DNA of 64,000 nucleotides from an uncultured bacterium. GTDB taxonomy: Bacteria > Armatimonadota > Abditibacteriia > Abditibacteriales > Abditibacteriaceae. The stretch spans positions 2,864,375 to 2,928,374 of the forward strand of contig CAWJLW010000006.1 of assembly GCA_963843795.1 (NCBI GenBank), in the 5' to 3' direction. The stretch's first letter is position 1. Each line of letters opens with the position of its first letter. Positions 1 through 63,184 of this stretch are shown in pieces. Made by a program: the position numbers and the translations under genes. Below the pieces are notes generated by a model that had not been told where the DNA came from, made no database searches, and saw only the letters and a program-made list of their open reading frames with translations.

Positions 1-760
1 CGCCCAAGGGCGTCGAGCAACCGGCTTGCAACGCTTCCATGCAGGCGCGTTCGGTTTCGACACAAAAGCGCGCGCTTTCATTTTCCAACCCTGCAAGTAC
101 TTGCAGCACATTTTGATCGTCGCAGCGCGCTTCCAAAGCCAGCGCGCCCTGTCCGGGCGCGGGCACGAAATTTTGGCAATTGAAATCAAAATGCTGATGT
201 TGCGATAAATCAATGCCAAGCCGGTTCAAGCCCGCGCGCGCCAGCAGAATCGCATCGAAACTTTCATCCAATTTGCGTAATCGAGTGTCGATGTTGCCAC
301 GCACAGAAGAAACTTTTAAGTCGGGGCGCTGATATTTCAATTGTGCCGCGCGGCGCAAACTCGAAGTGCCTACGCGCGCACTGTGCGGCAATTGCGACCA
401 TACAGTTTCGTTTTCCCGATCGTCCAAATCGCGGCGCAAAATGCAAGCATCGGCAGGATTTTCGCGACCGGGCACGCACGCCAGACACAAATTTTCGGGG
501 AAAAGCGGTGGCAAATCTTTCAGGGAATGGACGGCAAAATCAATCTCGCCACTTAAAAGCGCTTGCTCGATTTCTAGCGTAAAAACGCCTTTTCCGCCAA
601 TTTCCGGCAGGGGTTGTCCTTGCTGCTTATCGCCCGTGGTGCGAATGATAATTTCTTCGATCCGCAAATCGGGTGTCAACTGTTCCAATGCGCGTGCGGT
701 CTGCCGAGCCTGCGCCAAAGCCAAGGCGCTGCCCCGTGTACCCATTTTCAAGATCGTCAT
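1..760 (-). CDS. hemC: Hydroxymethylbilane synthase (porphobilinogen deaminase), 3' end runs off window
   Basis: Read by hand on the minus strand from ATG at 760: MTILKMGTRGSALALAQ...GGKGVFTLEIEQALL..DFAVHSLKD..VGTSSLRR..VRGNIDTRLRKL..FVPAPGQGALALE..AGCSTPLG. These are HemC motifs. Not in the ORF track because it has no stop inside the window. Confidence 0.96.
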   Translation of the reverse strand, partial: MTILKMGTRGSALALAQARQTARALEQLTPDLRIEEIIIRTTGDKQQGQPLPEIGGKGVFTLEIEQALLSGEIDFAVHSLKDLPPLFPENLCLACVPGRENPADACILRRDLDDRENETVWSQLPHSARVGTSSLRRAAQLKYQRPDLKVSSVRGNIDTRLRKLDESFDAILLARAGLNRLGIDLSQHQHFDFNCQNFVPAPGQGALALEARCDDQNVLQVLAGLENESARFCVETERACMEALQAGCSTPLG

Positions 761-775
761 ATTTATTTTGAGAAT

Positions 776-1639
776 TTACTGTCCGATGAGATGTGGCGCA
801 CCCAGAAACGAAATCACCATCAGCAAAAAGCCATAAACGACGACTAAATTGGTGCGACGCCCGCGCCAGCCCAGCCACCAGCGCGCCACCAGATAAAGGG
901 CAAAAGTTGCCCAGGTGAGGCCAGAAAATAACACTTTCGGGTCGCTCCATACCCGATATTGCGCCTGATGACGTACTTGCCACACGACGCCTAAAAACAA
1001 ACCCAGCGTTAAAAGCGCCAAACCGAACGCCGTGGCGCGATAAATCACATCGTCGGCGACTTGCAGCGAAGGCAGGCGCTGCCACAAACCGCGCAGTTGC
1101 TTGCGTTTCAATAAATGATCTTGAATCAGATAAATCAAACTCGCCGCAAAAGCGAACGCCAAAGCAACATAACCGGCCACGATCAAGACGACGTGAACTA
1201 CTAACCATTGCGTTTCCAATCCGCTCGGATTGGGCGCGTAGCGATGAAGGGGCGCAGCGGTAAGCGAATATAACGCCGCCAAAAGTGCGACCGGTGTGAC
1301 GAACGCGCCCAAAGTGGTTTGCCCGACGCGTTGCCGCCAGCCCAGATACGCCACGATAAGAGCGCAGCCAAAAACGCCAGCGACGCCCGCTTTTTCGCGC
1401 CACAACAATGCACCTTGCCCGAACATCGCCAATGTGTGTAAATTGGCCCCACAAAACAAAAGCGCAAGGGAACCGATTTCAACGATTTCGTGCCACGCGC
1501 GGCCATGTTCGCGCGGCTCATCCGAGCGTAAAAACAAATGCGCCCATAACAAAAGCATTGCCACAAAATAGCACGCGACCGCGCCCAAAAGTAGCACGCC
1601 TTCCCACGCGGCCAATGCATTGGGAGCACCATTTCTCAT
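776..1639 (-). CDS. ccsA: Cytochrome c assembly family membrane protein (CcsA/HemX-like)
   Basis: Multi-TM protein with WLVVHV, YLIQDHLLK, GLFLGVVW and WSDPKV motifs. ATG overlaps the hemA stop (ATGA). Confidence 0.8.
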   Translation of the reverse strand: MRNGAPNALAAWEGVLLLGAVACYFVAMLLLWAHLFLRSDEPREHGRAWHEIVEIGSLALLFCGANLHTLAMFGQGALLWREKAGVAGVFGCALIVAYLGWRQRVGQTTLGAFVTPVALLAALYSLTAAPLHRYAPNPSGLETQWLVVHVVLIVAGYVALAFAFAASLIYLIQDHLLKRKQLRGLWQRLPSLQVADDVIYRATAFGLALLTLGLFLGVVWQVRHQAQYRVWSDPKVLFSGLTWATFALYLVARWWLGWRGRRTNLVVVYGFLLMVISFLGAPHLIGQ

Positions 1640-3048
1640 CGTGCCCCCTCGGGAGCAACCGATTGAGTTGCGCTGCTTTCTTTTTCGTTTTTGGGCGCGC
1701 TGCAAGTACTTGCAGCGCTGTTTGGGAAGGTTTCTAAATCGAAAGCGCGGCGCAAAGCTTCGACATCTTCGGGCTGCGAATCGGCGGCTTCGCGCAAATG
1801 ACGCAGCGGTGCGTGCATCAATTTTCCGCTCACCGAACGCGCCAGAGCGCGCACGATTTGCTGATCGCGCGGTGACAAATGTTGCAACTGTGCTAGCGCG
1901 ATCTCGGTTTCGCGGTCGCGCACTTCATTGGCGTGACGCGCCAAAGCTGACAAAACTGGCTGCGCGCCGCGACCTTTTATCCACTGTGCCCAGCTACGCG
2001 CTTCTTCACCGATAATTTCCTGCACCAAAGCCAATTCGCGCGCGCGCTGCTGCTGATTGGCTGCGACCACGCCCTGCAAATCGTCGATGTCATACAAATA
2101 CACATTGTCCTGTTGATGTGACAAAGGGTCGATGTCGCGAGGAACGGCAATATCAATCAAAAACAGTGGGCGCTGATGGCGCAAGCGCATAGCCTGCTCG
2201 ACTTGGGTTGCCGTTAACACCAGATGCGGCGCGCGCGTGGACGAAATCACAATATCAGCTTTCACTAACTGTTCTGGAAATTCTTCCCACGTCACGGCCT
2301 GAGCCTGCGCGTTGGGGATGCCTTCAAGAAAATTAAGTTCGCTATCGTTCTGACGCGCATCACTGTCAGAAAACAAACGCGCCAATTCCTGCGCGCGCTG
2401 ATAAGTGCGATTGGCGACCAGAATGCGGCGCGCGCCCGAAGCCACCAGATGTTGTGCCGTCAGCGCCGACATTTTGCCTGCGCCCAAAATCAAAACCGTA
2501 TGACCATTCAGCGGGCCAAAAATTTGGCGCGCTAATTCGACTGCCGCCGAACCAACATTCAATGCGCCGCGCCCAATGGCGGTTTCGGTGCGCGCGCGTT
2601 TACCGCATGCGATAGCGCGACGCAGCAGTTCGTCCATTTCCGCGCCCAGCGCGCCGTGTTCGCGTGCCACCGCCAGAGTCGCTTTCACTTGTCCTAAGAT
2701 TTCGCTTTCGCCCAACACCAAAGAATCAATGCCACTCGCGACGGCGAACAAATGCTGCACCGCGTCATCGTCTTGCGCGCGATAAAAATGACTTTCAATT
2801 TCGAGCGTTTCGTTCTGTGTCCAGCCGCCAATTTGCGGAAGTAATTTGTGCAGTTGGTCGGGAAAATTGGCCGGCGCCTGAAGATAAATTTCGGCGCGAT
2901 TGCAGGTCGAGAGAATCGCCGCTTGTTGGGCGCCATTAGCACGCAGCAAACGTAGTGCTTCGGCTAAACGCGAGGGCGAAAACGCCATGCGCTCGCGCAC
3001 CTCAACCGGCGCGGTTTTGTGATTCAATCCCAGCAAAAATAACGGCAT
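1636..3048 (-). CDS. hemA: Glutamyl-tRNA reductase
   Basis: GLNHKTAPVEVRE, LSTCNRAEIY, SGIDSLVLGESEILGQVK, GAGKM, DIAVPRDI motifs. Confidence 0.97.
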   Translation of the reverse strand: MPLFLLGLNHKTAPVEVRERMAFSPSRLAEALRLLRANGAQQAAILSTCNRAEIYLQAPANFPDQLHKLLPQIGGWTQNETLEIESHFYRAQDDDAVQHLFAVASGIDSLVLGESEILGQVKATLAVAREHGALGAEMDELLRRAIACGKRARTETAIGRGALNVGSAAVELARQIFGPLNGHTVLILGAGKMSALTAQHLVASGARRILVANRTYQRAQELARLFSDSDARQNDSELNFLEGIPNAQAQAVTWEEFPEQLVKADIVISSTRAPHLVLTATQVEQAMRLRHQRPLFLIDIAVPRDIDPLSHQQDNVYLYDIDDLQGVVAANQQQRARELALVQEIIGEEARSWAQWIKGRGAQPVLSALARHANEVRDRETEIALAQLQHLSPRDQQIVRALARSVSGKLMHAPLRHLREAADSQPEDVEALRRAFDLETFPNSAASTCSAPKNEKESSATQSVAPEGAR

Positions 3049-3126
3049 ACCAATCCACTTTTCATCGCGACAACGCCACAATCTGCGTTGCAAGTACTTG
3101 CAACGCAACTTTCCTGACCAGCGGGT

Positions 3127-3768
3127 TCAACTGCTCGAACCATTCACCATTTTTTCAAATTCGGCGCGCGCGCTTTCCACTTCGCCCGCTTTGAGTAAGG
3201 ACAAAATATCGCTTTCCAGAATCGCGCGCCACAATTCGGCGCGCTGCTTTTGTTCACCGAGCATTTTCATTTCGGCGCGCTGTTCGCTCATCCAGCGCAA
3301 CAAGTGAGCGTATTCCGCGCCAATTACGCCTTCGATTTCAGCTTTCAAATGACGCGAAAGCGCTGGGCTACCACCCGAACTTGAAATGCCTATGCAAATT
3401 TCGCCACGACGAATTGTGGCCGCACCGTGAAAATCGCTTTCTGCCGAATCGTCAGCCAAGTTGCACCACGCGCCGTTGAGTTTCGCTTCGCGCGCGATTT
3501 TGGCATTGACGGAGCGCGCATCGGTGCAGGCGAAAACCAGATCAAAATCGCTGGTGTCACCGGCAGCAAAAGCGCGCTGCAAGTACTTGCAGGCGCGTTT
3601 TTCGATGAGCGAGGCCAAAGCTTCACACAGTTCGGGTGCGATAATTGTCACAGTGGCGTGACATTCCACGAGCGAAGCGGCTTTGCGTGCCGCGACCGCA
3701 CCGCCTCCGACAATCAGGCACGCACGACCGCTCACATCTAAAGCGACCGGCAACAGTTTTCGGCTCAT
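3127..3768 (-). CDS. sirC: Precorrin-2 dehydrogenase/sirohydrochlorin ferrochelatase (SirC/CysG N-terminal domain)
   Basis: LIVGGGAVAARK, CNLADD, IGISSSGGSPALS motifs. Confidence 0.9.
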   Translation of the reverse strand: MSRKLLPVALDVSGRACLIVGGGAVAARKAASLVECHATVTIIAPELCEALASLIEKRACKYLQRAFAAGDTSDFDLVFACTDARSVNAKIAREAKLNGAWCNLADDSAESDFHGAATIRRGEICIGISSSGGSPALSRHLKAEIEGVIGAEYAHLLRWMSEQRAEMKMLGEQKQRAELWRAILESDILSLLKAGEVESARAEFEKMVNGSSS

Positions 3769-3781
3769 GAGAATTGCCAGC

Positions 3782-3919
3782 TTACAATTCTTCGCGCGGC
3801 ACATCGCGCAGCGTTTTTTCCAATTGTCGCGTCGCGCGATCCAAACGGAACAGGTAAATCCACACACCGAACCATGTCAAAAGCGAGACGATTAAAGCGA
3901 ATAAAGTTTCTTTGCCCAT
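3782..3919 (-). CDS. ccmD: CcmD-family small membrane protein
   Basis: 45 aa with one TM (WFGVWIYLFRLDR) and a charged tail, directly after ccmC. Confidence 0.7.
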   Translation of the reverse strand: MGKETLFALIVSLLTWFGVWIYLFRLDRATRQLEKTLRDVPREEL

Positions 3920-3938
3920 CAATAATTTCCGAGAATTT

Positions 3939-4589
3939 CTAAGCCCACTGCAATTCTTTCCACGCCGCTGCACGCTCTTGCAAAGCTAGCAAGCGCGCGC
4001 GAATTTGCGCCACGCTTACCAGAATCAGCGTCATGCCAATCATGTTGAAATAAAGCGCGAATTTATACAAATTGTTACTTCCGATAATCGTGCGATTAGG
4101 ATGCAACGACGGCATCAGTTGACGAAAAGCAAACGTCCAGAAAACCGCCGCGATAATGCCCAGAATCGCAAAAACCGCCCACGCGTTGCGCTGCTTGACT
4201 GCGTCTTCAGTCGCGCCGCGCAGCGAAAATAAACCGGCATAAGTGAGAAGCGTGGCGACAATTCCGATCTGCTGAGGGTCCCAACTCCAATAAGCGTTCC
4301 AGTTAATTTTCGCCCACACCGCGCCAGTAATCATCGCGATAATACCAAACGCGAATCCACATTCGGCGAACGCGACCGAAGCACGGTCAAATTTTGGATC
4401 GCGTTTCCATAACCACAGCACGCCATTGACTGCTGCAATGATAAATGCAGTTTCCATCGCAATCGCCATCGGGACGTGGAAAAACGCCGCTGGCGTCGCT
4501 TTTAACGCCGCCGCCGGTGGCATTGACCACGCGATGATAATGCCCGCGCTCACCCAGATTAAAGTCACAATTTGCAAAATCATTGTCAT
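3939..4589 (-). CDS. ccmC: Haem exporter protein C
   Basis: FFHVPMA, TGAVWAKINWNAYWSWDP (WWD motif), SLHP. Confidence 0.9.
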   Translation of the reverse strand: MTMILQIVTLIWVSAGIIIAWSMPPAAALKATPAAFFHVPMAIAMETAFIIAAVNGVLWLWKRDPKFDRASVAFAECGFAFGIIAMITGAVWAKINWNAYWSWDPQQIGIVATLLTYAGLFSLRGATEDAVKQRNAWAVFAILGIIAAVFWTFAFRQLMPSLHPNRTIIGSNNLYKFALYFNMIGMTLILVSVAQIRARLLALQERAAAWKELQWA

Positions 4590-4635
4590 TTACTCAGCTA
4601 GGGCACAGCAAGTCCTTGCGGCGCGCTTTACAACT

Positions 4636-5382
4636 TCAGTTCCACACAAAATCGAACAGCATCCACGCCGCAGCCAGCATCGCCACATCATACGCGACCA
4701 GCGCTTGCAGCGTGCTTTGCGCATCGCCACCGTTGCCAAAAGCTACGCCAGTCGCGTTGGTCGCAATCACCAGCAATGGCAGCAAAATCGGAATCGCGAT
4801 GGCGCAAAACAGCGCACCGCGCGATTGTGCACCCATTGTCATCGCGCCCAACAGCGAAGAAACCGCTGCCAGCCCGATGTCAGACAACAATAAAACGCCG
4901 ATGAGCAATCCGGGCTGCGCGACGTGAATATCGAGCAGCACAATCGTTACCGGCACCGCACCGATTTGCGTGAGTAAAAGCAGCGAAAAATTCCACAGCG
5001 TTTTGCCCCACAAAACCGCGCTCGCCGGTGCGTGCAAACGCAAAAGCCAGTGCGTGCCGCTTTCTTCTTCTTTAATCCACACGCGCGACAGGCCAATCAG
5101 TGCCGCCAGCAATAACGTCGTCCACAACAAACCGGCTTGCACATCGGGCTTTAATTTCTGCGCCGCGACGCTGAAGGAAAGCGAAATCGGCACCGCGATG
5201 GCAAAGAGCGCGATGGAATTTAACGCCGCGCGCGTGCGCCATTCGCCACGCCAATCTTTGACAAACACCGCACGCACCGCGCGCCACCACAGCGCGCGCG
5301 ATGCAACGGATTGAATCTGAGCTTCATTTCTGGCTACGGTTGCTGTTGAGCTTTGCATTTCGCGCAGCGGAGTTTGCACCAT
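4636..5382 (-). CDS. ccmB: Haem exporter protein B
   Basis: KDWRGEWRTR, EEESGT, LWGK, IPILLPLLV motifs. Lies between ccmA and ccmC. Start uncertain. Confidence 0.88.
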   Translation of the reverse strand: MVQTPLREMQSSTATVARNEAQIQSVASRALWWRAVRAVFVKDWRGEWRTRAALNSIALFAIAVPISLSFSVAAQKLKPDVQAGLLWTTLLLAALIGLSRVWIKEEESGTHWLLRLHAPASAVLWGKTLWNFSLLLLTQIGAVPVTIVLLDIHVAQPGLLIGVLLLSDIGLAAVSSLLGAMTMGAQSRGALFCAIAIPILLPLLVIATNATGVAFGNGGDAQSTLQALVAYDVAMLAAAWMLFDFVWN

Positions 5383-5443
5383 TTCACGATAACCAACGCC
5401 CGAAAACGCGCCGCCAGTACTTCCAGGTACTTGCAAGCACGAG

Positions 5444-6088
5444 TTAAGGCGTTTTCAAAATTGGCACGCTTTCCACATCAATCGTGCAATCGCACAGTTC
5501 GATTTCGCGTGCGTCGTTGGTTGCCAACAAAGCCACGCCGCGCGTGCGCTGCTCATCCAGAGCGCGCCGCAAAAGCACGCGACCGGCTTCATCCAAATTC
5601 GCGCCCGGCTCGTCCAACAATAAAATCGGCGGCGCGTGCAAAGTTGCAATACACAAAGCCAAGCGCGCGCGCAAACCACTCGACAAATCGCCCGCCAAAT
5701 CGTTCCAACGCGCACCCAGTTCCCATTCTTCCAAGCGCGCGCGCAAATGCGCTTCTTCATCACTCTTGCAAGTACTTGCAGGGCGCATTTGCGACCAGAA
5801 CTGCAAATTTTCGCCGCACGTCAATTCGCGATACAGCGGAACATCGGGCGCGCACAAACCACACAGCGCGCGCAATTCTTCCCCCGCGATTTCCGAAGCA
5901 TCTTCGCGCCACACAATTCTTCCGGCATCAAGAGTTGTCAAAGCAGCGACAGCGCGCAACAAAGTACTTTTGCCGCTGCCGTTGCGCCCGATAATCGCCG
6001 CGACGCTGCCTGTTTCAATTTCAAAATCTAAGCGCCGCAAAACCACGCGCGCACCATAACGTTTACCGACTTTGCTGCCAATTAACAT
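5444..6088 (-). CDS. ccmA: Haem exporter ABC ATPase
   Basis: GRNGSGKSTLL, LSSG signature, LLLDEPGANLD, next to ccmB. Start taken at ATG 6088. Confidence 0.88.
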   Translation of the reverse strand: MLIGSKVGKRYGARVVLRRLDFEIETGSVAAIIGRNGSGKSTLLRAVAALTTLDAGRIVWREDASEIAGEELRALCGLCAPDVPLYRELTCGENLQFWSQMRPASTCKSDEEAHLRARLEEWELGARWNDLAGDLSSGLRARLALCIATLHAPPILLLDEPGANLDEAGRVLLRRALDEQRTRGVALLATNDAREIELCDCTIDVESVPILKTP

Positions 6089-6222
6089 CGCAGAGAGGAC
6101 AGACAGACAAAAATAAGAGGAAAAGAGAAAAAATTTTGCGTACTGAAGGTGCGGCTTCTTCGCTGCAAGTACTTGCAGCGAAGATTTGTGTTTCTTCCTT
6201 TCAAACCTTCTTTTTCCCTCTT

Positions 6223-7467
6223 TTATTTTTCGCGGCTCACCACGTAATCTGCGATGTCGCACAGCATCTGGCGCGCGGGACAATTTTCGAAAATGTCCAG
6301 TTCGGCTTTGGCTCGACCCGCATATTCCAAGGCGCTGTGCAAACACGAGGCGATGGCGTCGCTCGAACGTAGTGCTTCCAAAACGCGCTCGACATCGACG
6401 TCTTCAATCGGGCTTTTTCCGATCAGTTCGCATAAAATCGCGCGCTCATCGGCGCTTGAAGTTTGCATTGCGCGCAGCATCGGCAGCGTAATGATGCCTT
6501 CGCGAATATCGTTGCCGACCGGTTTGCCAATGCGCTTTTTGCTGGAAACCACGTCGAACACATCATCGACAATTTGAAACGCGATGCCGATATAATGACC
6601 GTAACGTGCCAGAGCCTCGACCTGCTGATCGGTGGCTCCAACGGCAAGGGCGCCGATGCGGCACGAGCATTCAGTGAGGGCCGAAGTTTTCAAGGCGACG
6701 ATTTCCAGATAATCGCTTTCCTCCATTTCCAGTTCGCCGCGCTTCTGCGCTTCCAGCAGTTCGCCCGCGCACATTTGTGCCGTCGCTTGCGCAAGCGGGT
6801 TCATCAAATCATAAAAGCCGCGCTGCGAAGCGATGAGAAAAACTTGCGCGAACAGGTAGTCGCCCACCAGAACGCTCATGCCGTTGCCCCAAACGAGATT
6901 AGCAGCGGGCTTGCCGCGTCGCACTTCGGCGCTATCGACCACATCATCATGAAGCAATGTCGTCGTGTGGGTGAGTTCAACAGCGACCGCAGCAGCCAGC
7001 ACTTTTTCGGGCAATTGCCCTCTGCGCACATGATCATCGCACAATTGCGCCGCCAAAACCGTTAAGGCCGGACGCAAACGCTTGCCGCCCGCGCCCAGAG
7101 TGTGCGAGGCGACATCGGCCACGGCTTTGATTGAAGCCGAAACCATGCGCTCGATTTCGATTTCGACTTGCTTGAGTTGCGGCTTCAAGCCTTGCAGCGA
7201 AGCCGAAATATCGATGTCGCGCCACAATTCCTCAGTCGCGATGCTTTCCTGCGCGACTGAAGAACCATTGTAGCTGGCTCCGTTGCGACGAACATTCTGC
7301 GCGCGTGTGGCTTCGTGCGAACGAGCGTCGTCGTGCGGGCGCACCATGCGTTCGGTCAGGTCGTTGGCCAGTTCATCGGTCATCGTTTCCAGAGCCGTTT
7401 CGACTTGGCCGACCGTGCTTTCAGGCGCAATTTCCGTGGCTTGTGGGGCGTAAATTTGCTGTTCCAT
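6223..7467 (-). CDS. Polyprenyl diphosphate synthase (IspB/HepT family)
   Basis: GGKRLRP, LLHDDVVD..VRRG, GDYLF, AFQIVDD, GKPVGNDIREG. Confidence 0.93.
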   Translation of the reverse strand: MEQQIYAPQATEIAPESTVGQVETALETMTDELANDLTERMVRPHDDARSHEATRAQNVRRNGASYNGSSVAQESIATEELWRDIDISASLQGLKPQLKQVEIEIERMVSASIKAVADVASHTLGAGGKRLRPALTVLAAQLCDDHVRRGQLPEKVLAAAVAVELTHTTTLLHDDVVDSAEVRRGKPAANLVWGNGMSVLVGDYLFAQVFLIASQRGFYDLMNPLAQATAQMCAGELLEAQKRGELEMEESDYLEIVALKTSALTECSCRIGALAVGATDQQVEALARYGHYIGIAFQIVDDVFDVVSSKKRIGKPVGNDIREGIITLPMLRAMQTSSADERAILCELIGKSPIEDVDVERVLEALRSSDAIASCLHSALEYAGRAKAELDIFENCPARQMLCDIADYVVSREK

Positions 7468-7504
7468 GACGTTTCCGTTGACGTTTCCGTTTTTGGCGTT
7501 TGAT

Positions 7505-8257
7505 TTATTTGGTGTGCAGATAATACGACAAAACTTCTAATTGCGAGGTCAAATCGACGTGGCGCACCACAATGCCGGGCCGCACTAAAATCGCGACCGG
7601 CGCGAAATTCAAAATCGCCTGCACGCCCGCTGCCACTAATTTATCCACAGCCGCCTGAGCTGCGCCGCTACTGACCGCGATAACGCCCACTGTGGCGCAC
7701 AACTGCGCGTTCATCGAGACCAGTTCATCAATGTGATGCACCTGCGTCCCGTTAATTTTCGTCCCCACTTTGTTTTTATCAATATCAAAGGCCGCCACCA
7801 CATGAAAGCCACGCAACGGAAAACCCGGATAATGCAACAACGCGCTTCCCAGATTGCCCGCACCCACTAACAACACATCATGGCGCGCATCCAAACCCAT
7901 AATGCGCGATAAATGCGCTTCCAATTCCGCCACATCGTAACCCAAACCCGGCGTTCCAAATTCGCCGAAATACGATAAATCTTTGCGGAACTGCGCCGCA
8001 TTAATACCCGTTCCCTGCGAAATTTGCGACGAACTCGCCGTAGCAATGCCCGAAGCGCGCAAGTTGCGCATACACTGCAAATATGCGCTCATACGCTCGA
8101 TGGTCGGCTGCGGCACGCGTTGCAAATGTTCCGGCAACTCCATCGCCGCTGGCACAACCGTCGGTGCCGAAGACGCTTTGATCGAAGGCGCTTTTGCTTC
8201 GAGTGCCTTGCTCGTTAAAGCGGTGGTTGTAGCCATCGTGGTTTTGGAATTCGACAT
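7505..8257 (-). CDS. rex: Redox-sensing transcriptional repressor Rex
   Basis: TIERMSAY, QFRKDLSYFGEFGTPGLGY, VGAGNLGSAL, ILNFAP. Confidence 0.96.
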   Translation of the reverse strand: MSNSKTTMATTTALTSKALEAKAPSIKASSAPTVVPAAMELPEHLQRVPQPTIERMSAYLQCMRNLRASGIATASSSQISQGTGINAAQFRKDLSYFGEFGTPGLGYDVAELEAHLSRIMGLDARHDVLLVGAGNLGSALLHYPGFPLRGFHVVAAFDIDKNKVGTKINGTQVHHIDELVSMNAQLCATVGVIAVSSGAAQAAVDKLVAAGVQAILNFAPVAILVRPGIVVRHVDLTSQLEVLSYYLHTK

Positions 8258-8336
8258 AAAGCTGTCCCCGGCGCTGGTTTCATGCTGTTTTCATTAAGGC
8301 GTGATTCGCCTCACGAAGCAATGTTTGTGCGAGACT

Positions 8337-8354
8337 TTGAGAAATATTTCACAA
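8337..8354. promoter_or_regulatory. Rex operator (ROP)
   Basis: TTGAGAA-ATAT-TTCACAA, one mismatch from the TTGTGAA-W4-TTCACAA consensus, 80 bp upstream of rex. A weaker CGTGA-N6-TCACG lies at 8300-8315. Confidence 0.8.
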
Positions 8355-52931: not shown

Positions 52932-52961
52932 CTCGGCTCTCATAAAACTACGGACCCAATT

Positions 52962-53006: not shown

Positions 53007-53010
53007 CGCA

Positions 53011-55101
53011 TTAATTTTTCGGCAGCTGCCAGTTGGTATCGAAAAACCCAGCGGCCAGCGTTTGGTTGGTTCCATCGCTTGGTTCGCGCAGTGCCGAGAA
53101 CACGATGTAATCGGGTGGCAGATCCCATTTGTGATTAACCGGCAGAAATTCGCCCCACGCAACGCCCGATTGCACGACAATCATGCGCTGCGCCGACCAC
53201 GGCGAAGCGTAGCACATTTGCAAGCCCAGCGGCACGCCCGCTTCGCCGCGCAAGTACTTGCGCGTTTTTCCCGTGCCAATGCGCACACCATCGGGCGTCC
53301 ATTCGAGTGGCAACTTATCGGAGATTTCGCTCAACAAAGCGTTGCTTTCGCTCGAGCCGAACAATAGCAGATTGAAATTTTGTTTATCGGCGGCGCTCAC
53401 TTGGGCATCGGCTTTCATCGGCGGCACGCCATCGGCGTAAACGCGCCACTCCTGCGCCCATTTTTCTGCCGCAGCTTTGTCATTATTGACGCCTTTTTGC
53501 AGTTTTTTGGTGCCATAAACCAGCAAAAACGGATCGCGATAACAGTTTTTAACTGGGCCGCTGAGGCTGGGAGATTTAGGTGCGATGGAGGCGGTTTTTC
53601 TCGGTGAAATGGGCCACCAGATCGCACCATCTTCAGCACGCGTCACTTCGACTTTTTCGCCGTTGACGGAAAGATTCACTTTCGCGTTTTTGGCCAGTAA
53701 TTCGGCGGGTGGATCGAGACGAAACGAAGTGACGTTTTTCGTGGTGACTGCAATCGTGTTGGGTTCGACAGCTGAAATTGTGGCATCGATGGTGGCGGCC
53801 TGTGCGTAATCGGCGCGGGTTTGGATATGCGCCCAATACGCGCCCGAATTGCGCGCATTGACACTGATGTAAGTGACACGCGCGGGCGGCGACGTTTTTT
53901 TCAACGGGCGCAGCCAGTCCAACGCGGTGTCGTAGGCGCGGTCGTAAAAATAAATGTAATGATCGCCTCGGGGAATTTCGCGATAGCGAAAGGGCAAACT
54001 TTGCTCTTGCAGCGTGCGCGCCATGCGCCGCGACTGCTCGACATCGGCGATAGTGTCCAAGGCACCGTGTTGAATCAGCATTGGCAAAGTGCGCGCGTTG
54101 GCGGCCAGAAAGCGCGGCTCATCGGCGTCATATTGCGAGCGTTTCCAAATCGGCACATTTTCACGTTGCAAACCAAACCATAGATAGAAATCGCTACGCG
54201 CCGACATCGGAGCCAAGCCCGCCCATAAATCGGGATGATGCAAGCCAACCGCGTAAACGCCAAACCCGCCCATCGAAGGCCCCATCAGCGTCACGCGATT
54301 TTCATCGACGTTATACAAACGCATGGTTTCTTCGCGCACGCGCAACACATCGTCTTCGCCCACATCAACAAAATCGGTGTTACGCCGCCCGTATGGAATC
54401 GCGATGATAAAGCCGCGCGAAGTCGCCAAGCGCCAGGTATCTTCATCGGGCAGCCAGGGCGCCAGTTTGGACGTATCCGGACTGTAACCATGCAGAAAAA
54501 CTACTAAAGGATATTTTTTCTGCGGCGAATAATCGTCGGGCACCGCGACCCAGTAGGGCTGGGGAGAACCATCGTTGCGCGCGAGATAAGCGCGCTCGTG
54601 TAAAGGCTTTTCCGAAGGATAAACCGCATCGTCGGGAGCGTTCGCGACGGCTTGCGCTCGGTCGAGATAAAACGCCGTCCAGTTGCGTAATTCGGCGTTG
54701 TACAGGGCGCGGCCCGATTCCAAAATTTCCAGTGCGAGTTCGACTTGCTCCAACTTGAATTCCAGCAAAGCCAAGTTCTGTGCAGAGGCGGGCGCAGTGT
54801 GGTCGGCCACACGCGCTTTCAACACGCGCCAATTTGCGCGCAGTTGTGCGGCAGATAAACGCGTCGCCGGTGGCGAGAAATAAGGCGTCGCTGCGCCGGC
54901 TTGTTCTTCGCTGTTTTCTTCACTGTGTGCGTTTTCGGGAAGGGTAGGCGGAGCGCCAAACGGAATTTCGGAGGCATCGAGCTTTTGGTTCGCGGGCTTC
55001 GAGGGCGCGCCCGTTTGTGCGCTGCAAGTACTTGCAGCGAAGCACAGAGCAAGTAGTTGCAAGCGGAGAAATGAACGCGAAGAAAAAGGAAAACGATTCA
55101 T
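53011..55101 (-). CDS. Secreted alpha/beta hydrolase (esterase/prolyl oligopeptidase-like)
   Basis: YPLVVFLHGY, GPSMGG nucleophile elbow, HGALD, GDH. Confidence 0.85.
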   Translation of the reverse strand: MNRFPFSSRSFLRLQLLALCFAASTCSAQTGAPSKPANQKLDASEIPFGAPPTLPENAHSEENSEEQAGAATPYFSPPATRLSAAQLRANWRVLKARVADHTAPASAQNLALLEFKLEQVELALEILESGRALYNAELRNWTAFYLDRAQAVANAPDDAVYPSEKPLHERAYLARNDGSPQPYWVAVPDDYSPQKKYPLVVFLHGYSPDTSKLAPWLPDEDTWRLATSRGFIIAIPYGRRNTDFVDVGEDDVLRVREETMRLYNVDENRVTLMGPSMGGFGVYAVGLHHPDLWAGLAPMSARSDFYLWFGLQRENVPIWKRSQYDADEPRFLAANARTLPMLIQHGALDTIADVEQSRRMARTLQEQSLPFRYREIPRGDHYIYFYDRAYDTALDWLRPLKKTSPPARVTYISVNARNSGAYWAHIQTRADYAQAATIDATISAVEPNTIAVTTKNVTSFRLDPPAELLAKNAKVNLSVNGEKVEVTRAEDGAIWWPISPRKTASIAPKSPSLSGPVKNCYRDPFLLVYGTKKLQKGVNNDKAAAEKWAQEWRVYADGVPPMKADAQVSAADKQNFNLLLFGSSESNALLSEISDKLPLEWTPDGVRIGTGKTRKYLRGEAGVPLGLQMCYASPWSAQRMIVVQSGVAWGEFLPVNHKWDLPPDYIVFSALREPSDGTNQTLAAGFFDTNWQLPKN

Positions 55102-55138
55102 AGAAATTGGCAAACCTATATTGCGACCTTCGCTTAAC

Positions 55139-55260
55139 TTTGTAGGGCGCGGGTCCCTGAGCCGCCCTGTTTCAGACCAAATCCGTTCTTTAAATATCGG
55201 TTATTAAATATCGGTTATTGCCGCCCGACAAGGACGGGTCGGAGACCCGCACCCTACAAA
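55139..55260. repeat. GTAG-type REP doublet (REPIN-like)
   Basis: TTTGTAGGGCGCGGGTC (55139-55155) is inverted with GACCCGCACCCTACAAA (55244-55260), one mismatch. Each unit has an internal hairpin. Confidence 0.7.
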
Positions 55261-55297
55261 TGCTTGTGGCAAATGCTTGTCACAAGCATTTGGCGCG

Positions 55298-56041
55298 TCA
55301 CATCTGCAAACCGCCATCAATGCCGAAAGTTTGGCCGGTAACATAAGCCGCTTCATCCGAAGCGAGATAAACCGCCAGAGCCGCGACTTCTTGTGCGGTT
55401 CCGAACCGCCGCAATGGTACTAAGGCGCACTGTTTTTCGCGCTGTGCTTCGTTATCGCTCAACATATCGGTGTCGATGAAACCGGGCGCAATCGCGTTTA
55501 CCGTGACGCCATAAGGCGCGAGTTCACGCGCGGCGGTTTTGGTCAAACCCAGTAATCCGGCTTTGGCCGCAGCATAAGGCGCGCGCAGGGCATCGCCCAT
55601 CTGTCCGGCACGCGATGACAGGTTAATAATGCGTCCGGTTTTGCGCCGCGTCATGCTTTTGGCCGCCGCACGCGATAGGCCGAATGCGGCTTTGAGATTC
55701 ACATCCAGCACTTCATCCCAGCTTGCGTCCGAAGTCATCGCCAGAAAGCTGCTTTTCAAAAGGCCCGCGTTGTTAACCAGAATATCCAGACCATCGAAAT
55801 CATCGTGCGCGCTTTTCCACAGGGCTTTGAGCGCATCGGAATCGCGCAAATCGCATTGAAAAACCGGCGCGCGACGGCCCAGAGCTTCGATTGCGCGCGC
55901 GGTTTCCTGCGCGGCATTTTCATCGCTGTTGAAGTGCAGCGCGATGTCGGCGCCCTGCGCGGCCAAAGCTAAAGCGATGGCGCGACCGATGCCACGACTG
56001 GAGCCGGTAACAAGAGCAGTTTTTCCACTGAGATCAAACAT
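55298..56041 (-). CDS. fabG: 3-oxoacyl-ACP reductase family SDR
   Basis: TGSSRGIG, LVNNAG, YAAAKAG, NAIAPGFIDTDM, IDGG. Confidence 0.85.
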   Translation of the reverse strand: MFDLSGKTALVTGSSRGIGRAIALALAAQGADIALHFNSDENAAQETARAIEALGRRAPVFQCDLRDSDALKALWKSAHDDFDGLDILVNNAGLLKSSFLAMTSDASWDEVLDVNLKAAFGLSRAAAKSMTRRKTGRIINLSSRAGQMGDALRAPYAAAKAGLLGLTKTAARELAPYGVTVNAIAPGFIDTDMLSDNEAQREKQCALVPLRRFGTAQEVAALAVYLASDEAAYVTGQTFGIDGGLQM

Positions 56042-56230
56042 GACTTGTCATTTTAACTCAATCGACCATGATTACCGTGCACGATTTCGATGGCTCGTGC
56101 AGGGCTGTGTGAAGGGCTGCACGTACTTGCAGCCCCGAATTTTGAGCGCAACCGCAACAATTTTTGGTGCGTTAAAAGAAGCTGTCGTAAAAAGCCGCAT
56201 GGCAGAACGAGAAAGATTAAAAAGGAAAAT

Positions 56231-56686
56231 ATGAAAATTTTGAGTTGGCTTTATCCGGCGTGGCCCAGTGCGCGCGTTTCGCTGGGATTGCTGTTTTTGC
56301 GCGTAGTGAGCGGGCTGGCGATGATGCAACACGGCTGGAGCAAAATCCAAAGCCCGACCAGTTGGATGGGGCCGGATTCGCCGGTTCCCGGCTGGGCACA
56401 AGCGTGCGCCGCGCTGGGTGAATTTGGCGGAGGACTGGGCTTGTTAGTTGGCGCTTTTACCCCGCTGGCCGCTTTGGGCATCGCATCGACGATGATTGGT
56501 GCGATTCTTATCGCGCACCGCGACGCTCCGTGGATTGCTGGCGGCAAAGGTCCGTCGTGGGAAGCTGCGGGTTTTTACCTGTTCGTTGCCATCACCTTTC
56601 TTCTCGCCGGCCCGGGCCTCTATGCACTTGATGCGCTTTGGGTGCGCGGACGCTCTATCGATCCAGAACGCATACGCCGCGTTTGA
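56231..56686 (+). CDS. DoxX family membrane protein
   Basis: GLLFLRVV, HGWSK, EFGGGLGLLVG, GPGLYALD. AAGGA RBS. Confidence 0.9.
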   Translation: MKILSWLYPAWPSARVSLGLLFLRVVSGLAMMQHGWSKIQSPTSWMGPDSPVPGWAQACAALGEFGGGLGLLVGAFTPLAALGIASTMIGAILIAHRDAPWIAGGKGPSWEAAGFYLFVAITFLLAGPGLYALDALWVRGRSIDPERIRRV

Positions 56687-56701
56687 ACGAATTACGAACT
56701 T

Positions 56702-56735
56702 AAAAGCGCGCTGCAAGTACTTGCAGCGCGCTTTT
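56702..56735. terminator. 34-bp palindrome-core hairpin after DoxX
   Basis: Same 34-mer as 12597-12630. Confidence 0.75.
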
Positions 56736-56809
56736 GCCATCTGTTTCAATTCTCACTGTGGGCTGTGATAAAATTCACCATACAATCGCAGAATTTCTTT
56801 GCACTTCTC

Positions 56810-58636
56810 ATGGAAACCACTTCGCCCCTCATCTCCGCCGCACTCATAGACGACCTGAATGCGCCTGCCGCGAAACCTAAACGTTCGCGTTTCGCGCCGC
56901 CGCCTGCGCAGCCTAAAAACACCGCGCGCGCCGCGGTTTGGGATTTATCGCGTCGCGTCACGCCGCGCGACCGTTCCAATGGGGCGCAATTGCACATCTC
57001 GCCGGTCGCTAGCGCCGTAATGCGCGCACGCGGAATCGAAAATGTCAATCAAATGCAACGCTTTTTGGACATTGAAGAAGCTCGCAACGACCCGTTCGAT
57101 TTGCCCGACATCGAAGCCGCCATCGAACGCTTGCACCGCGCAATTGAAAGCCGTGAACCAATCTTAATTTTCGGTGATTACGATGTCGATGGCGTCACAT
57201 CGACCGCGATGATGCAACGTTCGCTGGCGCTTCTGGGAGCCAATGTCGAGGCTATCGTGCCCGAACGCGAAGACGGTTACGGCCTTAGCGTGCGCGCCGT
57301 CGAAGCCGCTCACGCGCGCGGTTTCGGTTTAATTTTGACCGTCGATAACGGTGTCACCGCATTTGCCGCGCTCGAACGCGCGCAGAAATTGGGCATTGAA
57401 GTTATTGTCACAGACCACCATGAACCGGCAGAAACCTTGCCGCCTGCTCTGGCGATTGTCAACCCGAAACGCAGCGATTCGCAGTATCCGTTTCGCGAGT
57501 TGTGCGGTTGTGCGGTGGCCTATAAAGTAATGCTGGCTTATCTCGAACGTTATCAACCGCGCCACGCTGCGGGTTTCGCCGAGCGCTACAGCGATTTCGT
57601 GGCTCTGGCGACTATCGCCGATTGTATGCCGCTTTATGGCGAAAACCGGTTGTTGGCGCACGAAGGTTTGCGCCAGTTGGCCGCCACGAAAAAAGCCGGT
57701 TTGCGCGCCTTAATGGAAAGCGCGGGCGTGCGCATCGAAAACGCAACCCTGAACGGCACTCAAGTCGGTTTTTTTATGGCGCCGCGCTTAAACGCTGCGG
57801 GCCGCTTCAATCGCGCCACTCTTTCGCTGCAATTATTGCTGGCCAAAGACGCGGCCAGCGGGCAGGAATTAGCTGCCCAACTCGAAGCACACAATCGGCG
57901 CCGTCAGGAAATTACCACCGATATGCACCGACAGGCCGCCGATTTAATGTTTCAATCGTCCGATTTAGACCGCGATTGCGCAGTCGTGGTCGCGGGCGAA
58001 AATTGGCCGCTGGGCATGGTCGGTTTGCTCGCCAGCCGACTGGTCGAGAAACACGGACGTCCGGCGATTGTGCTCGGCGTTGATGGCGAAATGGCACGCG
58101 GGAGCGGACGTTCGATTGATGGTTTCGATTTAGGCCATATTCTCAAAGCCACGCGCGATATTATTCAAGGTGGTGGCGGCCACGCCGGAGCGTGCGGCGT
58201 GCATCTGTCGACAGACCGCGTCGAAGAATTTCGCGCGCGGGTTTTGGAATGTACCGGTTCGCACCTTACACAAGACGATTTTCTGGGCCGCGTCGAACCC
58301 GACTGCGTGGTCGAAAGCGACGATTTAACCCCACTTTTGGCCAGCGACTTGGCGATGTTGGAGCCCTGCGGCAAAGGCAATCCCGAAGCGCTTTTGGCCG
58401 TCACCAATGCGCGCATTCAAGACGGACGCAACATCGGCAAAACCGGCACGCATTTGAAATGGCAGGTGCAAATCGGCGCGCGCGTTTTCGATGCGCTGTG
58501 GTGGAGTCCAGGCGACCGCGCCAACGGTTTTGGCATCGGCAAGCCAATTGATCTGTGCTTTTCGCCGCAGTTGAATCATTTCAACGGACAAACGAAATTA
58601 CAATTGATCATCAAGGCCGCGCGCCCGGCGGTTTGA
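56810..58636 (+). CDS. recJ: Single-stranded-DNA exonuclease RecJ
   Basis: GDYDVDG, TVDNG, TDHH, ATIADCMPL, PRLNAAGR, GSGRS, GGGHAGACG. Confidence 0.95.
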   Translation: METTSPLISAALIDDLNAPAAKPKRSRFAPPPAQPKNTARAAVWDLSRRVTPRDRSNGAQLHISPVASAVMRARGIENVNQMQRFLDIEEARNDPFDLPDIEAAIERLHRAIESREPILIFGDYDVDGVTSTAMMQRSLALLGANVEAIVPEREDGYGLSVRAVEAAHARGFGLILTVDNGVTAFAALERAQKLGIEVIVTDHHEPAETLPPALAIVNPKRSDSQYPFRELCGCAVAYKVMLAYLERYQPRHAAGFAERYSDFVALATIADCMPLYGENRLLAHEGLRQLAATKKAGLRALMESAGVRIENATLNGTQVGFFMAPRLNAAGRFNRATLSLQLLLAKDAASGQELAAQLEAHNRRRQEITTDMHRQAADLMFQSSDLDRDCAVVVAGENWPLGMVGLLASRLVEKHGRPAIVLGVDGEMARGSGRSIDGFDLGHILKATRDIIQGGGGHAGACGVHLSTDRVEEFRARVLECTGSHLTQDDFLGRVEPDCVVESDDLTPLLASDLAMLEPCGKGNPEALLAVTNARIQDGRNIGKTGTHLKWQVQIGARVFDALWWSPGDRANGFGIGKPIDLCFSPQLNHFNGQTKLQLIIKAARPAV

Positions 58637-58645
58637 TTTTTCTCT

Positions 58646-59728
58646 ATGAAACCATTCTGCAAGTACTTGCCATGCGTTTTAGCCGTCTTTTTAACGGCAA
58701 CCGTGCGTGCCGACGTGCCCTTGCCGCCCTTATCCAACATCGAAAAAGCTACGATTGAAAAACCGACATATCCCGACCTCAGAATTAATGACATCGCACC
58801 GAGGTTCGCTTTGTTCGACACGAATGAAAAATTGCAACTTTCGGTCGCACATCTTGGCGAGCGTTCGCTATTAGTTGTCACCTTGAACACGATGGACGAA
58901 AGTGATAACGACGAAGCCCGCAAAGCGCGCGCTGCCCGAGCCGCTTCTATCGCCAGCGCACTGAAAGACGCTACTGCACGCTTAGAAAAACTACCGGTTC
59001 AAATCGTCGCCATTGCGCCACCAAAAATGTTCCAAAACCTGCGCGATGCTTTGGGAGGCGCGGATGCGATAGAAAAAATCGCTCATCTGAATGTATTGCG
59101 TGATGACGCACAAAACTGGAGTCGCACCATTGAAGCGCCCTACAACTCGGTTTCAATCGCCGCGATAGACAAAGCCGGTTTTCTGCGCCGTCTGGAAACT
59201 GTCGATAGCGACGAATTATTGGCCGCACAATTAGGCGTCATTGGCGACACAACGCCGCGCTTGGAAATTGGAAAAGTTGCGCCCGATTGGAGCGTGGTGG
59301 ATTTTCAGGGACGCGCGCGGCGTTTAAGCGATTATCGCGGTCAGAAAAATGTGCTGTTGACATTCTTTCCCAAATGCTTCACCGGCGGTTGCGCCAATCA
59401 TTTGCGTTCTCTGAACGAAACTCTATTGGCATTCAAAACCAACGATACGCAAATCATCGCGGTTTCGTTCGACAGCGCCGATGGCGAACGCGGCCAAATC
59501 GCGTTTGCGCAACAATTAAATTTAGGCTTTCCTCTCGTGCCCGACACGGGCCGCAATTTGGCGCTGCTCTACGAAGCCGCATTTTCGCCGCAACAGCCCG
59601 CGCCCTCGCGCATGACGGTGTTGATTGATAAAGATGGCATCTTGCGTTACATTGATAGAGAAGTGCAAGTTCTGACGCACGGGCCGGACACGATAGCGAA
59701 AATGCGCGAATTAGGAATGCTAAAATAA
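58646..59728 (+). CDS. Secreted AhpC/TSA (peroxiredoxin-like) protein with two thioredoxin-fold regions
   Basis: Signal peptide. C-terminal GKVAPDW..RLSDYRG..FFPKCFTGGC..RMTVLIDKDG; N-terminal copy is degenerate (IDKAGFLR). Confidence 0.8.
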   Translation: MKPFCKYLPCVLAVFLTATVRADVPLPPLSNIEKATIEKPTYPDLRINDIAPRFALFDTNEKLQLSVAHLGERSLLVVTLNTMDESDNDEARKARAARAASIASALKDATARLEKLPVQIVAIAPPKMFQNLRDALGGADAIEKIAHLNVLRDDAQNWSRTIEAPYNSVSIAAIDKAGFLRRLETVDSDELLAAQLGVIGDTTPRLEIGKVAPDWSVVDFQGRARRLSDYRGQKNVLLTFFPKCFTGGCANHLRSLNETLLAFKTNDTQIIAVSFDSADGERGQIAFAQQLNLGFPLVPDTGRNLALLYEAAFSPQQPAPSRMTVLIDKDGILRYIDREVQVLTHGPDTIAKMRELGMLK

Positions 59729-59806
59729 AGCTCTTGCATAATTCTCTTTTCTAACCCTACGACTTCAATTGCAGAGATTAGAGAAGAAGTTTAATGATTG
59801 AGATAG

Positions 59807-59842
59807 AAAAAGCGCGCGGCAAGTACTTGCCGCGCGCTTTTT
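59807..59842. terminator. 36-bp palindrome-core hairpin
   Basis: AAAAAGCGCGCGGCAAGTACTTGCCGCGCGCTTTTT. Confidence 0.75.
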
Positions 59843-62800: not shown

Positions 62801-62986
62801 CGCGATGAACTCGGCATGATCGTAATGCCGATATGGAAAGGCGATTATCAGCGCGCTTTATCCAGCGCACGCCAAATTCTGGGCGCAGCAGCTTTTGAAC
62901 ACCACTGGTCGCAAGGCTTTTTCTGCGACTGGGAATATGCCGCCGCCCATGCGCTGAATGGAACTTCTTTTTTTAATTCAAGCTGA
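59891..62986 (+). CDS. SARP/AfsR-like regulator: BTAD + NB-ARC ATPase + TPR
   Basis: IRLFGGL, LLAYLA, DPLRETA, LTGPGGSGKTRLA, LLLLDSFEH, EGLPLAIELAA, C-terminal TPRs. Confidence 0.92.
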   Translation: MQRQWQIRLFGGLSASDGTRELHKFRTQKTASLLAYLAYHRRDHAREWLMAQFWPACDTASARHNLRMALSALRHQLESEGWPPGSVLKCDRTRIGFAADAVTSDVAEFTAAFDHARQHSQSQQENAVAHWTAVVDAYGGALLEGFYDDWVAPEQRRLEELFFQALHEAVRQLERAGDFERALQYAARGPIIDPLRETAQRDLMRLYARHQPALALRQYHEYELLLRHQLGGRPEAQTTAMAAQIQNNASSHHFSITAKQFVIEGENSTASTCSAPDAAMAGEPLFHAPSVFHAPSVFHAPLPCTQFFGREAEMARLQVLLCDPHTRLVSLTGPGGSGKTRLAQEAVSLVAAQWAGGAWLVELADLSDASLLVSALLASLQLRPAPDLDSFEELVNFLQRQPVLLLLDSFEHLMEEGAPIVAQLLARVAHLKCLVTSQQTLHLAGERVFLVPPLDLPAESSTWSDAASVRLFVDRAQAVQPHFAITAANAPLVAQLCERLEGLPLAIELAAARCGALSVTQMLEHLDHRFDFLVSRQRGVNSRHRTLLTAIDWSYQLLSPARQSFFARLSIFRGGCTLEAAQTIAGDCETLAALETLCESSLLVAREHSGAMRFHLLDSLREFGGQVLADDERAILQHRHAEFFTALAEAAAPQLARSHAGDWPERLAAEQDNLRAALEWSLAHNAELALRMASALTVFWERRCQIAEAQSWLERARPLPGPDDLRAHVLHASGRIAFVQSDATATEMLQTALQLFQATAQRAEENRAAIASSLSMLGVIVLNRGHFKDAARFFDQQLAVWQVSAIEEISSPTEEQQHGIAAALAQRGNLAVAQCDFVAALPILQQAATHFRVLQDDNGLAYVLDALGQMALLQGDREKARALLDQSLKLYHDAEETLWSIRALWGRGHLARDEGDFGAALGFYRAGINTACRNRNRISVPYLLEAIGALEVGRGDAARGAILLGAAQALRDELGMIVMPIWKGDYQRALSSARQILGAAAFEHHWSQGFFCDWEYAAAHALNGTSFFNSS
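60746..60793 (+). repeat. In-frame 18-bp tandem repeat (FHAPSV x2.7)
   Basis: TTTCATGCGCCTTCGGTG TTTCACGCGCCTTCGGTA TTTCATGCGCCC. Confidence 0.9.
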
Positions 62987-63033
62987 TTTCCTACTTCGCC
63001 CACTTTTCTATCTCGCCCGCTTTCTCGCTGTCG

Positions 63034-63064
63034 CCGTCCATCTCAATTGATGGGCGGTTTTTTT
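63034..63064 (+). terminator. Intrinsic terminator
   Basis: CCGTCCATC-TCAATT-GATGGGCGG followed by T7. Confidence 0.8.
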
Positions 63065-63184
63065 AGCGGAAACTTTTCGCACATCACGATTTTGTGACGT
63101 TTCTGAGACGCACGGCTTTTAAGATGAAAAGCCGTGCTGCAAGTACTTGCAGCACCCCAAATCTACGTTTCGCTGGAGAACACG

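Follow-up and report, generated by a model that had tools for sequence, protein, structure and literature searches.

A 64,000-nucleotide stretch (hereafter the window) of contig C6 in the genome of an uncultured bacterium of the Abditibacteriaceae, phylum Armatimonadota (genome G000; 4.30 Mb, 92% complete), carries 49 exact copies of the 12-bp palindrome GCAAGTACTTGC between positions 93 and 63150, one per 1.3 kb, and the same word recurs 2,567 times on all 11 contigs of the genome, about one per 1.7 kb. It is a selected word and not a mobile repeat, maintained and evenly spread, represented in related genomes by distinct dialects, secondarily shaped as a terminator and mutually exclusive with the gene for a nuclease of predicted restriction-type fold. 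As the best explanation, to which we give a little less than an even chance, the palindrome is a methylatable self-DNA tag that favours the uptake or recombination of kin DNA, like the highly iterated palindrome HIP1 or the DNA uptake sequence (DUS); in this explanation we infer methylation of the centre of the word and the existence of a protein that reads it. The word and its dialects are called the tag below, irrespective of function.

A conserved palindrome in genes and spacers

The 12-mer is absent from each of 100 dinucleotide shuffles of the window, and Markov models of orders 1-3 predict 0.2-0.7 copies in the genome. One-mismatch variants number just 506 (3,073 - 2,567), which indicates that all 12 positions are held; flanking positions add CT before and AG after the 12-mer to the consensus, and A/T tracts lie some 15 bp away from its dyad. 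Neither a shared body nor a target duplication surrounds the copies, and the window has no match in Rfam. Along the 3.6-Mb contig the density is flat at 47-83 copies per 100 kb, the exception being a first bin (30) rich in insertion sequences (IS), and 54-73 copies per 100 kb at the skew switch leave no terminus gap. Tag-poor DNA, as far as the two largest tag-free stretches and the small contigs were examined, contains IS transposases, restriction-modification genes, a helicase cluster and a contractile injection system, and another tag-free gap consists of one very long sensor gene only. No usable polymorphism of tag sites was obtained from three public DNA runs of one study, which may represent the source sample and whose own contigs, at a depth of about 3, span the region in short pieces; none of the public runs listed was of RNA.

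The initial annotation, made from the letters of the window, had counted 49 copies, 32 at gene junctions and 17 in coding sequence, spread regardless of gene function and devoid of shared body or target duplication, and had proposed a lineage-specific, genome-wide signal of the HIP or DUS type that is neither HIP1 nor DUS and would act through a dimeric binding protein, an uptake receptor or a methylase/repair process. Recount and independent gene calls reproduce these figures, placement is independent of the function of the window genes, and the exact 12-mer is nearly species-specific with 0-3 copies in each of 40 relatives; the word is a different one, palindromic, and its host belongs, by its named homologs, to the Abditibacteriaceae of the Armatimonadota. 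Enrichment confined to the contig, a possibility the annotation had raised, is contradicted by the genome-wide count, and the nulls and the origin-terminus map it had suggested gave fewer than one copy against the 2,567 observed, the codon-based contrast reported below, and an even density through the skew switch. The annotation had overlooked that arms are mirrored in individual intergenic copies, that the spacing is over-even, that close pairs are phased at 10.5 bp and that relatives have dialects of their own.

Beyond G000, the hexamer AGTACT is hyper-abundant (750-1,230 per Mb) in six of 331 Armatimonadota genomes, all Abditibacteriaceae, the others reaching at most ~240 per Mb. Seven of the 27 genomes of the family are tagged, with five dialects which each contain GTAC: besides GCAAGTACTTGC these are CAAAGTACTTTG in G001, CGAGTACTCG in G012, TCGAGTACTCGA in G009, G015 and G019, and AGTACGGTCGAWWTCGACCGTACT in G006. 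This last form is a palindrome of 24 bp in which GTAC stands twice, reads AGTACG/CGTACT and has a symmetry centre different from that of the other forms; some half-sites occur too, and the half-site is matched 2,981 times in the genome. The core conserved across dialects is (A)GTAC and not AGTACT, and comparative evidence supports the suggestion of the initial annotation that a methylase may act on the GTAC core. Both genomes of genus g1 are tagged, as are five of six in genus g6, the exception, G017, being the sister of tagged G012 in a quick RpoB tree (30 of 31 class genomes, G024 left out). The search for other words covered 8-110 kb of each untagged genome, so that further tags may be missed.

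Codon usage is excluded as the source of the coding copies because 747 of them compare with 1-7 in five synonymous-codon resamplings. The copies occur evenly along genes, in all three frames and without long arms, and they have altered the proteome, with QVLA found 562 times against 40 expected and ASTC 132 times against 3. In 147 ortholog-like pairs of G000 and G009, from a comparison that sampled 400 kb out of 3.8 Mb, the majority of the 39 G000 sites are in register and two carry the other dialect at the same position. In a metagenomic relative with the dialect CAAGTACTTG and 66% nucleotide identity (59 of 80 returned loci kept, 195 gene pairs), the word recurs at the position of 14 of 34 G000 coding sites (chance 0.012). 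Of the positions with QVL in both proteins, the relative carries it at 11 of 11 that are tagged in G000 but at 2 of 10 that are not, and of those with KYL in both, at three of four against two of six. The alignments are gap-free at 27 of 34 coding sites, somewhat below the 93% background, and by these alignments the coding copies look like substitutions, not inserts. Over-representation, presence in coding sequence beyond codon usage and sites conserved between genomes, by which HIP-class words are tested, are hence all found for the tag.

Gene calls made independently for G000 (3,438 genes, 86% coding; the junction labels in the window depend on this caller) place 1,801 copies (70%) between genes, 745 in coding sequence and 21 at edges, corresponding to 2.9 copies per kb of intergenic and 0.20 per kb of coding DNA; of the window copies, 32 are intergenic, with 23 in tandem, 5 in divergent and 4 in convergent spacers, and 17 are coding (Table 1). 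Copies stand in 276 of the 432 convergent spacers, in 1,105 of the 2,164 between tandem genes and in 230 of the 451 divergent ones (51%). In convergent spacers, the mirroring of the two flanks continues past the consensus to A/T tracts at their ends, so that ~34-bp palindromes of terminator shape result; individual intergenic copies have arms mirrored copy by copy, doubled cores also occur, and upon folding five of five intergenic examples from the window gave z of -2.6 to -7.9, with one coding example being without a fold. That the word is chiefly a transcription signal, a terminator core or the operator of a global regulator, would agree with the intergenic bias and with the convergent hairpins, often long and ending in T-tracts, and an unrelated-looking phage (see below) has a near-identical palindrome, often near ribosome-binding sites. 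Yet the 745 coding copies are conserved although they lack long arms, the G009 dialect shows no arm mirroring and gene function is irrelevant to placement; we consider this explanation very improbable. Scarcely credible is a selfish repeat like REP (repetitive extragenic palindrome) or NTS, spread by a hairpin-recognising transposase or nuclease, as would be compatible with the same bias and hairpins, with the share of gap-free sites below background and with one weak Y1 transposase match in G000. In contrast to REP/RAYT and NTS/Ssn, the tag has no body, does not cluster and is spaced over-evenly (see below), coding copies align to orthologs as substitutions, G000 has no small GIY-YIG gene of Ssn size, and Y1 does not track the tag, being not found in tagged G006 and commonest in untagged G003.

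The tag copies repel each other and are spaced more evenly than random. In G009, 34 gaps of 16-400 bp compare with 116 expected, and the coefficient of variation (CV) of the spacing is 0.62, whereas none of 300 nulls falls below 0.88, with a CV of 0.61 in G012 and 0.52 in G006; in G000, the median distance of a coding copy to the closest intergenic one is 1,049 bp, compared with 689 bp (maximum 770 in 200 nulls; near-motif control 725). Even spacing suggests that one site serves ~1 kb, as predicted by a fragment-level filter in uptake or recombination. Those 242 pairs of G000 that do stand 16-120 bp apart recur with a period of 10.5 bp (R 27, where nulls reach 10.5 at most), with phasing at 10.3-10.9 bp up to ~80 bp separation, which is also seen in the 132 non-hairpin pairs (R 14.8 against 7.6 in the null), and the A/T tract ~15 bp from the dyad is found in coding copies too, where it exceeds a QVL control on the upstream side.

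These features would suit an abundant, dimeric and possibly methylation-sensitive protein that organises the chromosome or acts in the cell cycle, with SeqA and Noc as comparison systems, which would occupy one site per ~1 kb and see neighbouring sites on the same helix face. In its favour speak the palindrome with all positions held, the A/T tract even in coding copies, the phasing with non-hairpin pairs included and the copies in half of the divergent spacers. Furthermore, the SlmA site GTGAGTACTCAC is, in the available text of PMC3020112, a 12-bp palindrome with the same AGTACT core, its centre identical to the G012 core GAGTACTC, and a chromosome role has been proposed for HIP1 in the accessible part of PMC5861425. 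Unlike the SlmA system, however, there are thousands of sites, no terminus exclusion and no match to TetR_N (PF00440) in G000 at its 92% completeness (the positive control was found in 13 of 14 genomes); G009 is almost without close pairs (one at 16-120 bp among 382 copies) and has no A-tracts, the 24-bp G006 form is centred differently, close relatives live without any such tag, and A-tract phasing, if general in spacers, could contribute to the periodicity. Overall, such a protein is an unlikely, if serious, explanation of the tag.

A candidate GTAC methyltransferase and its putative nuclease partner

G000 encodes one PF01555 methyltransferase, of the beta class with DPPY, which is solitary (G000:C6:2517365-2518135); C6 has two more methyltransferase genes, of type I/IIG shape, and C11 a piece of the Eco57I type. 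The solitary enzyme has orthologs in 22 of the 31 class genomes, among them all seven tagged ones, two copies in untagged genomes having stops; the named matches are generic beta-class enzymes at 32-36% identity (plasmids) and those in the PDB are likewise generic. In G020 and G017 the methyltransferase gene is convergent with the gene for a candidate partner nuclease. This protein, encoded for instance at L083:764-1447 and L087:695-1411, has no Pfam match; its structural model (pLDDT 91) has NhoI (Z 7.3, root-mean-square deviation 3.5, 120 aligned), MutH (Z 7.2, 4.0, 144) and PvuII (Z 6.3, 4.2, 128) as top matches, nearly all of the top 24 rows, at moderate Z, are restriction-type nucleases or resolvases, and an Atlas search leads to PvuII and ScaI. 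By the model, the partner protein has a PD-(D/E)xK restriction fold.

Intact or almost intact nuclease genes are present in 13 of the 31 genomes, all of them with the methyltransferase, and within the family in 13 of 20 untagged against none of seven tagged genomes (Fisher p 0.006, overstated because kin are not independent). Tagged G015 retains a frameshifted remnant beside the methyltransferase, and a 120-sequence profile detected no diverged or dead copy in the six frames of G000 (best E 3.6). A signal-peptide-like leader is present in 84 of 120 nuclease homologs by a crude hydrophobicity rule and in 10 of 13 family copies by eye, with leaderless forms in G020 and Abditibacterium utsteinense. 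In G020 (L083), the methyltransferase groups with that of G000 and not with its own genus (support 84), and this pair is likely a transferred cytoplasmic restriction-modification pair. A ComEA-type helix-hairpin-helix gene lies directly upstream of the nuclease gene in G008 (L335:1077-2082), one of 93 nuclease loci.

The ratio of CGTACC to its reversed control is at most 0.051 in 12 of the 13 nuclease-bearing genomes and 0.13 in the remaining one, G003. Tagged genomes have ratios of 0.13-0.50, and those of G010, G021 and G023, which are without both genes, are 0.29-0.38. Outside the Armatimonadota, 65 nuclease-bearing loci longer than 8 kb (of 80 returned, with 8 Armatimonadota and 7 short ones set aside), nearly all verrucomicrobial, contain GTAC 158 times where 1,561 would be expected, and in 59 of them no other 4-base palindrome is as rare; no methyltransferase homolog was found in these loci. 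The avoidance suggests that the candidate nuclease cuts unmethylated GTAC, its methyltransferase neighbour would be specific for the same site, and the two can be regarded as a putative GTAC restriction-modification pair with a usually exported nuclease. The nuclease family of predicted restriction fold (L326-L338, L340-L419), in most copies leader-bearing, is distributed over Abditibacteriaceae and Opitutaceae, and its carriers are almost without GTAC.

With the HpyAXII/PabI restriction-modification system, as described in the available text of PMC2588503, the pair would share the presumptive GTAC target, genome-wide GTAC avoidance and a barrier to incoming DNA, but the nuclease has a predicted PvuII/MutH-type and not a HALFPIPE fold, most copies have a signal-peptide-like leader, and the methylase is of the beta class in place of the gamma-class M.HpyAXII. 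R.PabI itself was found in none of the 31 genomes, with the positive control silent too.

With the presumed methyltransferase site at its dyad, the tag may instead be functionless, created and restored by methylation-directed repair or by gene-conversion bias, as in Elhai's HIP ratchet, while hairpin-templated copying mirrors the arms. Such a model has been published for HIP (available text of PMC4390886), and it is in line with the enzyme being kept in all tagged genomes, with the mirroring of arms beyond the consensus and with the doubled cores. A 4-base enzyme, however, leaves at least eight further fixed bases and five dialects unexplained, MutH is missing from G000, and repulsion between sites is not predicted by a context-blind ratchet; we hold a ratchet of this kind to be improbable.

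Self-recognition as a proposed function

According to the self-DNA reading, the solitary beta-class adenine methyltransferase would mark GTAC and the partner nuclease, apparently exported in most relatives, would cut unmarked GTAC, with genomes that keep the nuclease purging GTAC. Lineages without the nuclease would have turned the mark positive, in that a protein of the uptake or recombination pathway prefers fragments with the (methylated) tag; because one tag per fragment would be enough, biased uptake or conversion would add tags up to an even spacing. In the G000 species, intergenic copies may later have been co-opted as terminator hairpins and, more speculatively, the unit of the G006 form might be read as asymmetric and be wanted on both strands, as for single-stranded incoming DNA.

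HIP1 (GCGATCGC) and alternate cyanobacterial palindromes share with the tag, in the available texts of PMC4390886 and PMC5861425, a genome-wide occurrence in genes and spacers, a central methyltransferase site (presumed in the case of the tag), a retained orphan methyltransferase and conserved sites, and methylated HIP1 raises transformation >100-fold according to the accessible part of 10.1101/2024.09.10.611283. HIP1 proper is excluded by the different word and by the under-representation of CGATCG in G000 (observed/expected 0.20), and the tag further differs in its phylum, in word length (10-24 versus 5-8 bp), in having five dialects in one family, in the strong intergenic bias in G000, in local repulsion below 400 bp and in sister lineages that purge GTAC with a nuclease. 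As for DUS of the Neisseriaceae (spacing 1.1-1.5 kb, terminator use and dialects) and the uptake signal sequence (USS) of the Pasteurellaceae, so far as covered by the available portions of PMC2397512 and PMC12616744, the tag recurs once every 1-1.7 kb, comes in dialects that leave a core fixed, is used in terminators, is scarce in DNA of recent origin, has entered coding sequence by substitution where this is permissive and, as in USS, has A/T-rich flanks. Those words are asymmetric, whereas the tag is palindromic (G006 also has some half-sites) and tied to a presumed methylase site, no basic pilin like ComP/ComN was found, and by analogy the tag would have a role in uptake. The tag is thus neither HIP1, DUS/USS, the SlmA-binding site (SBS) nor REP. 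In Campylobacter jejuni, the RAATTY site of the orphan adenine methylase CtsM reportedly serves as a self mark in methylation-gated transformation; in contrast, the 4-base site is here embedded in long fixed words and relatives possess an apparently exported cognate nuclease.

ComEC, ComEA and DprA are present in G000, and DprA is missing from G017 only (84% complete). As readers, TetR, small GIY-YIG, MutH, ComEC, ComEA, EVE and DprA proteins, the Y1 transposase and basic pilins were set aside as not found or not discriminating, and so was a dead nuclease copy, since G000 has no match and no tagged genome an intact gene.

Several observations weigh against the self-DNA reading. No reader was found among the protein families sought in tagged genomes; ComEC occurs in 30 of 31 genomes, and competence genes, being present in untagged genomes also, do not discriminate tagged from untagged ones. 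Among 33 prepilin-like proteins recognised by a motif rule, which can miss pilins, none of the eight outside DUF1559 is basic like ComP (isoelectric point of the mature part 5.4-6.4). The GTAC specificity of the methyltransferase is deduced from its neighbour nuclease, G007 (0.05), G016 (0.02), G002 (0.08) and G025 (0.04) avoid GTAC with no nuclease detected, and G003 has the nuclease but avoids GTAC only in part. Seven untagged family genomes are without the nuclease, so that its loss alone is insufficient for the tag, and a dimeric chromosome-binding protein would account better than a pilin for the palindrome, its flanking A/T tracts and the phasing of close pairs at 10.5 bp.

A wider proposal, possible but on balance doubtful, is that one family switches between two opposite modes of self-recognition on the same methyl mark, an exported nuclease that destroys incoming DNA with unmarked GTAC and thereby depletes the genome of GTAC, in Opitutaceae as well, and a new receptor that licenses the uptake or recombination of DNA with long, species-specific GTAC palindromes. 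If true, sequence-specific uptake dialects would be known from a third family, such tags being described for only two bacterial families in the accessible parts of the literature consulted, and the switch would show HIP-type words arising from a decayed restriction-modification pair; the function and origin of HIP1-like words are a long-open question. One family offers a testable frame in that its genomes are variously tagged, untagged or purged of GTAC, five dialects are known and candidates exist for both the methylase and the nuclease; the leader-bearing nuclease family is tied to a 4-base word having all but vanished in two phyla. The full-text literature searched, mostly without subscription journals and without supplements, gave, among the papers listed and as judged by their titles, no description of the core 10-mer, of iterated palindromes in Abditibacter(iaceae) or Armatimonads, or of an exported GTAC nuclease.

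Related words and features of the window

In untagged, GTAC-poor G017, contigs C1, C3, C14, C26 and C30 (L271-L285) contain patches with the dialects of G001, G012 and G006, as if gained from tagged relatives, and dialects could therefore trace donors. The loci L438-L517 (59 loci, 59-71% GC), with the dialect CAAGTACTTG and about one AGTACT per 0.85 kb, represent one or more further tagged organisms. An asymmetric word, CAGCCACG, is enriched in G007 (L306-L308; 43 versus 3.7 in 70 kb) and G016 (L325; 15 versus 1.5 in 26 kb) and is possibly Chi-like or another tag. In the phylum survey, AGTACT is nearly absent (0-54 per genome) from the Armatimonadota families f11 and f34. The tailed phage G331 (L286-L289; 67.8 kb, 39% GC, 7-deazaguanine genes) has 43 copies of GTGCAAGTRCTTGCAC within 2 mismatches, many adjoining ribosome-binding sites of the AAGGAG type, and the resemblance of its word to the tag is probably convergent; 16-base scans for the tag in phages of tagged hosts returned 6 and 13 loci, each with a single copy. 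The tag-poor contig C3 of G000 (L432-L433) holds an extracellular contractile injection system cluster with sheath, tube, baseplate, Pvc16 and an AAA ATPase.

Table 1. Copies of the 12-mer and associated hairpins in the window
Feature	Copy starts	Span	Remarks
Coding copies (17)	93, 1702, 3579, 5768, 14384, 25565, 27170, 28038, 28271, 28489, 29758, 46519, 53250, 55024, 60698, 61765, 63139		Peptides Q-V-L-A, K-Y-L or A-S-T-C
Copies between co-directional genes (23)	3090, 6165, 9309, 11218, 12608, 12692, 16912, 25947, 31970, 32933, 33953, 36011, 36041, 37307, 37319, 41288, 43075, 44472, 48966, 50711, 56713, 58659, 59819	3090..59830	From gene calls
Copies between divergent genes (5)	8469, 15792, 21911, 38497, 38780	8469..38791	From gene calls; no terminator needed there
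34-bp perfect palindrome, convergent junction	13235 (central copy)	13224..13257	A-tract left, T-tract right; bidirectional intrinsic-terminator shape, GUAC loop; -25.3 kcal/mol, z -6.1
Convergent-junction copy		19045..19056	Shorter mirrored arms; -20.2 kcal/mol, z -2.6
Long hairpin, convergent genes	22649 (central copy)	22631..22679	-32.6 kcal/mol, z -7.6
Copy pair 30 bp apart		36011..36052	About three helical turns; example of phased close pairs
Doubled copy in one 44-bp palindrome	37307, 37319	37297..37340	Between two pstS genes
Copy plus second copy with one base deleted, convergent junction	52973	52964..53004	One joint hairpin (folding)

Among the genes of the window, a phosphate transport operon with two tandem pstS genes extends over 33953-38423; its pstA (34332-34994) matches the first half of the model only, which suggests a frameshift or an assembly error. 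The gene at 41320-42915 encodes a major facilitator superfamily (MFS) transporter like tetracycline efflux pumps, with scores far below the curated cut-offs.

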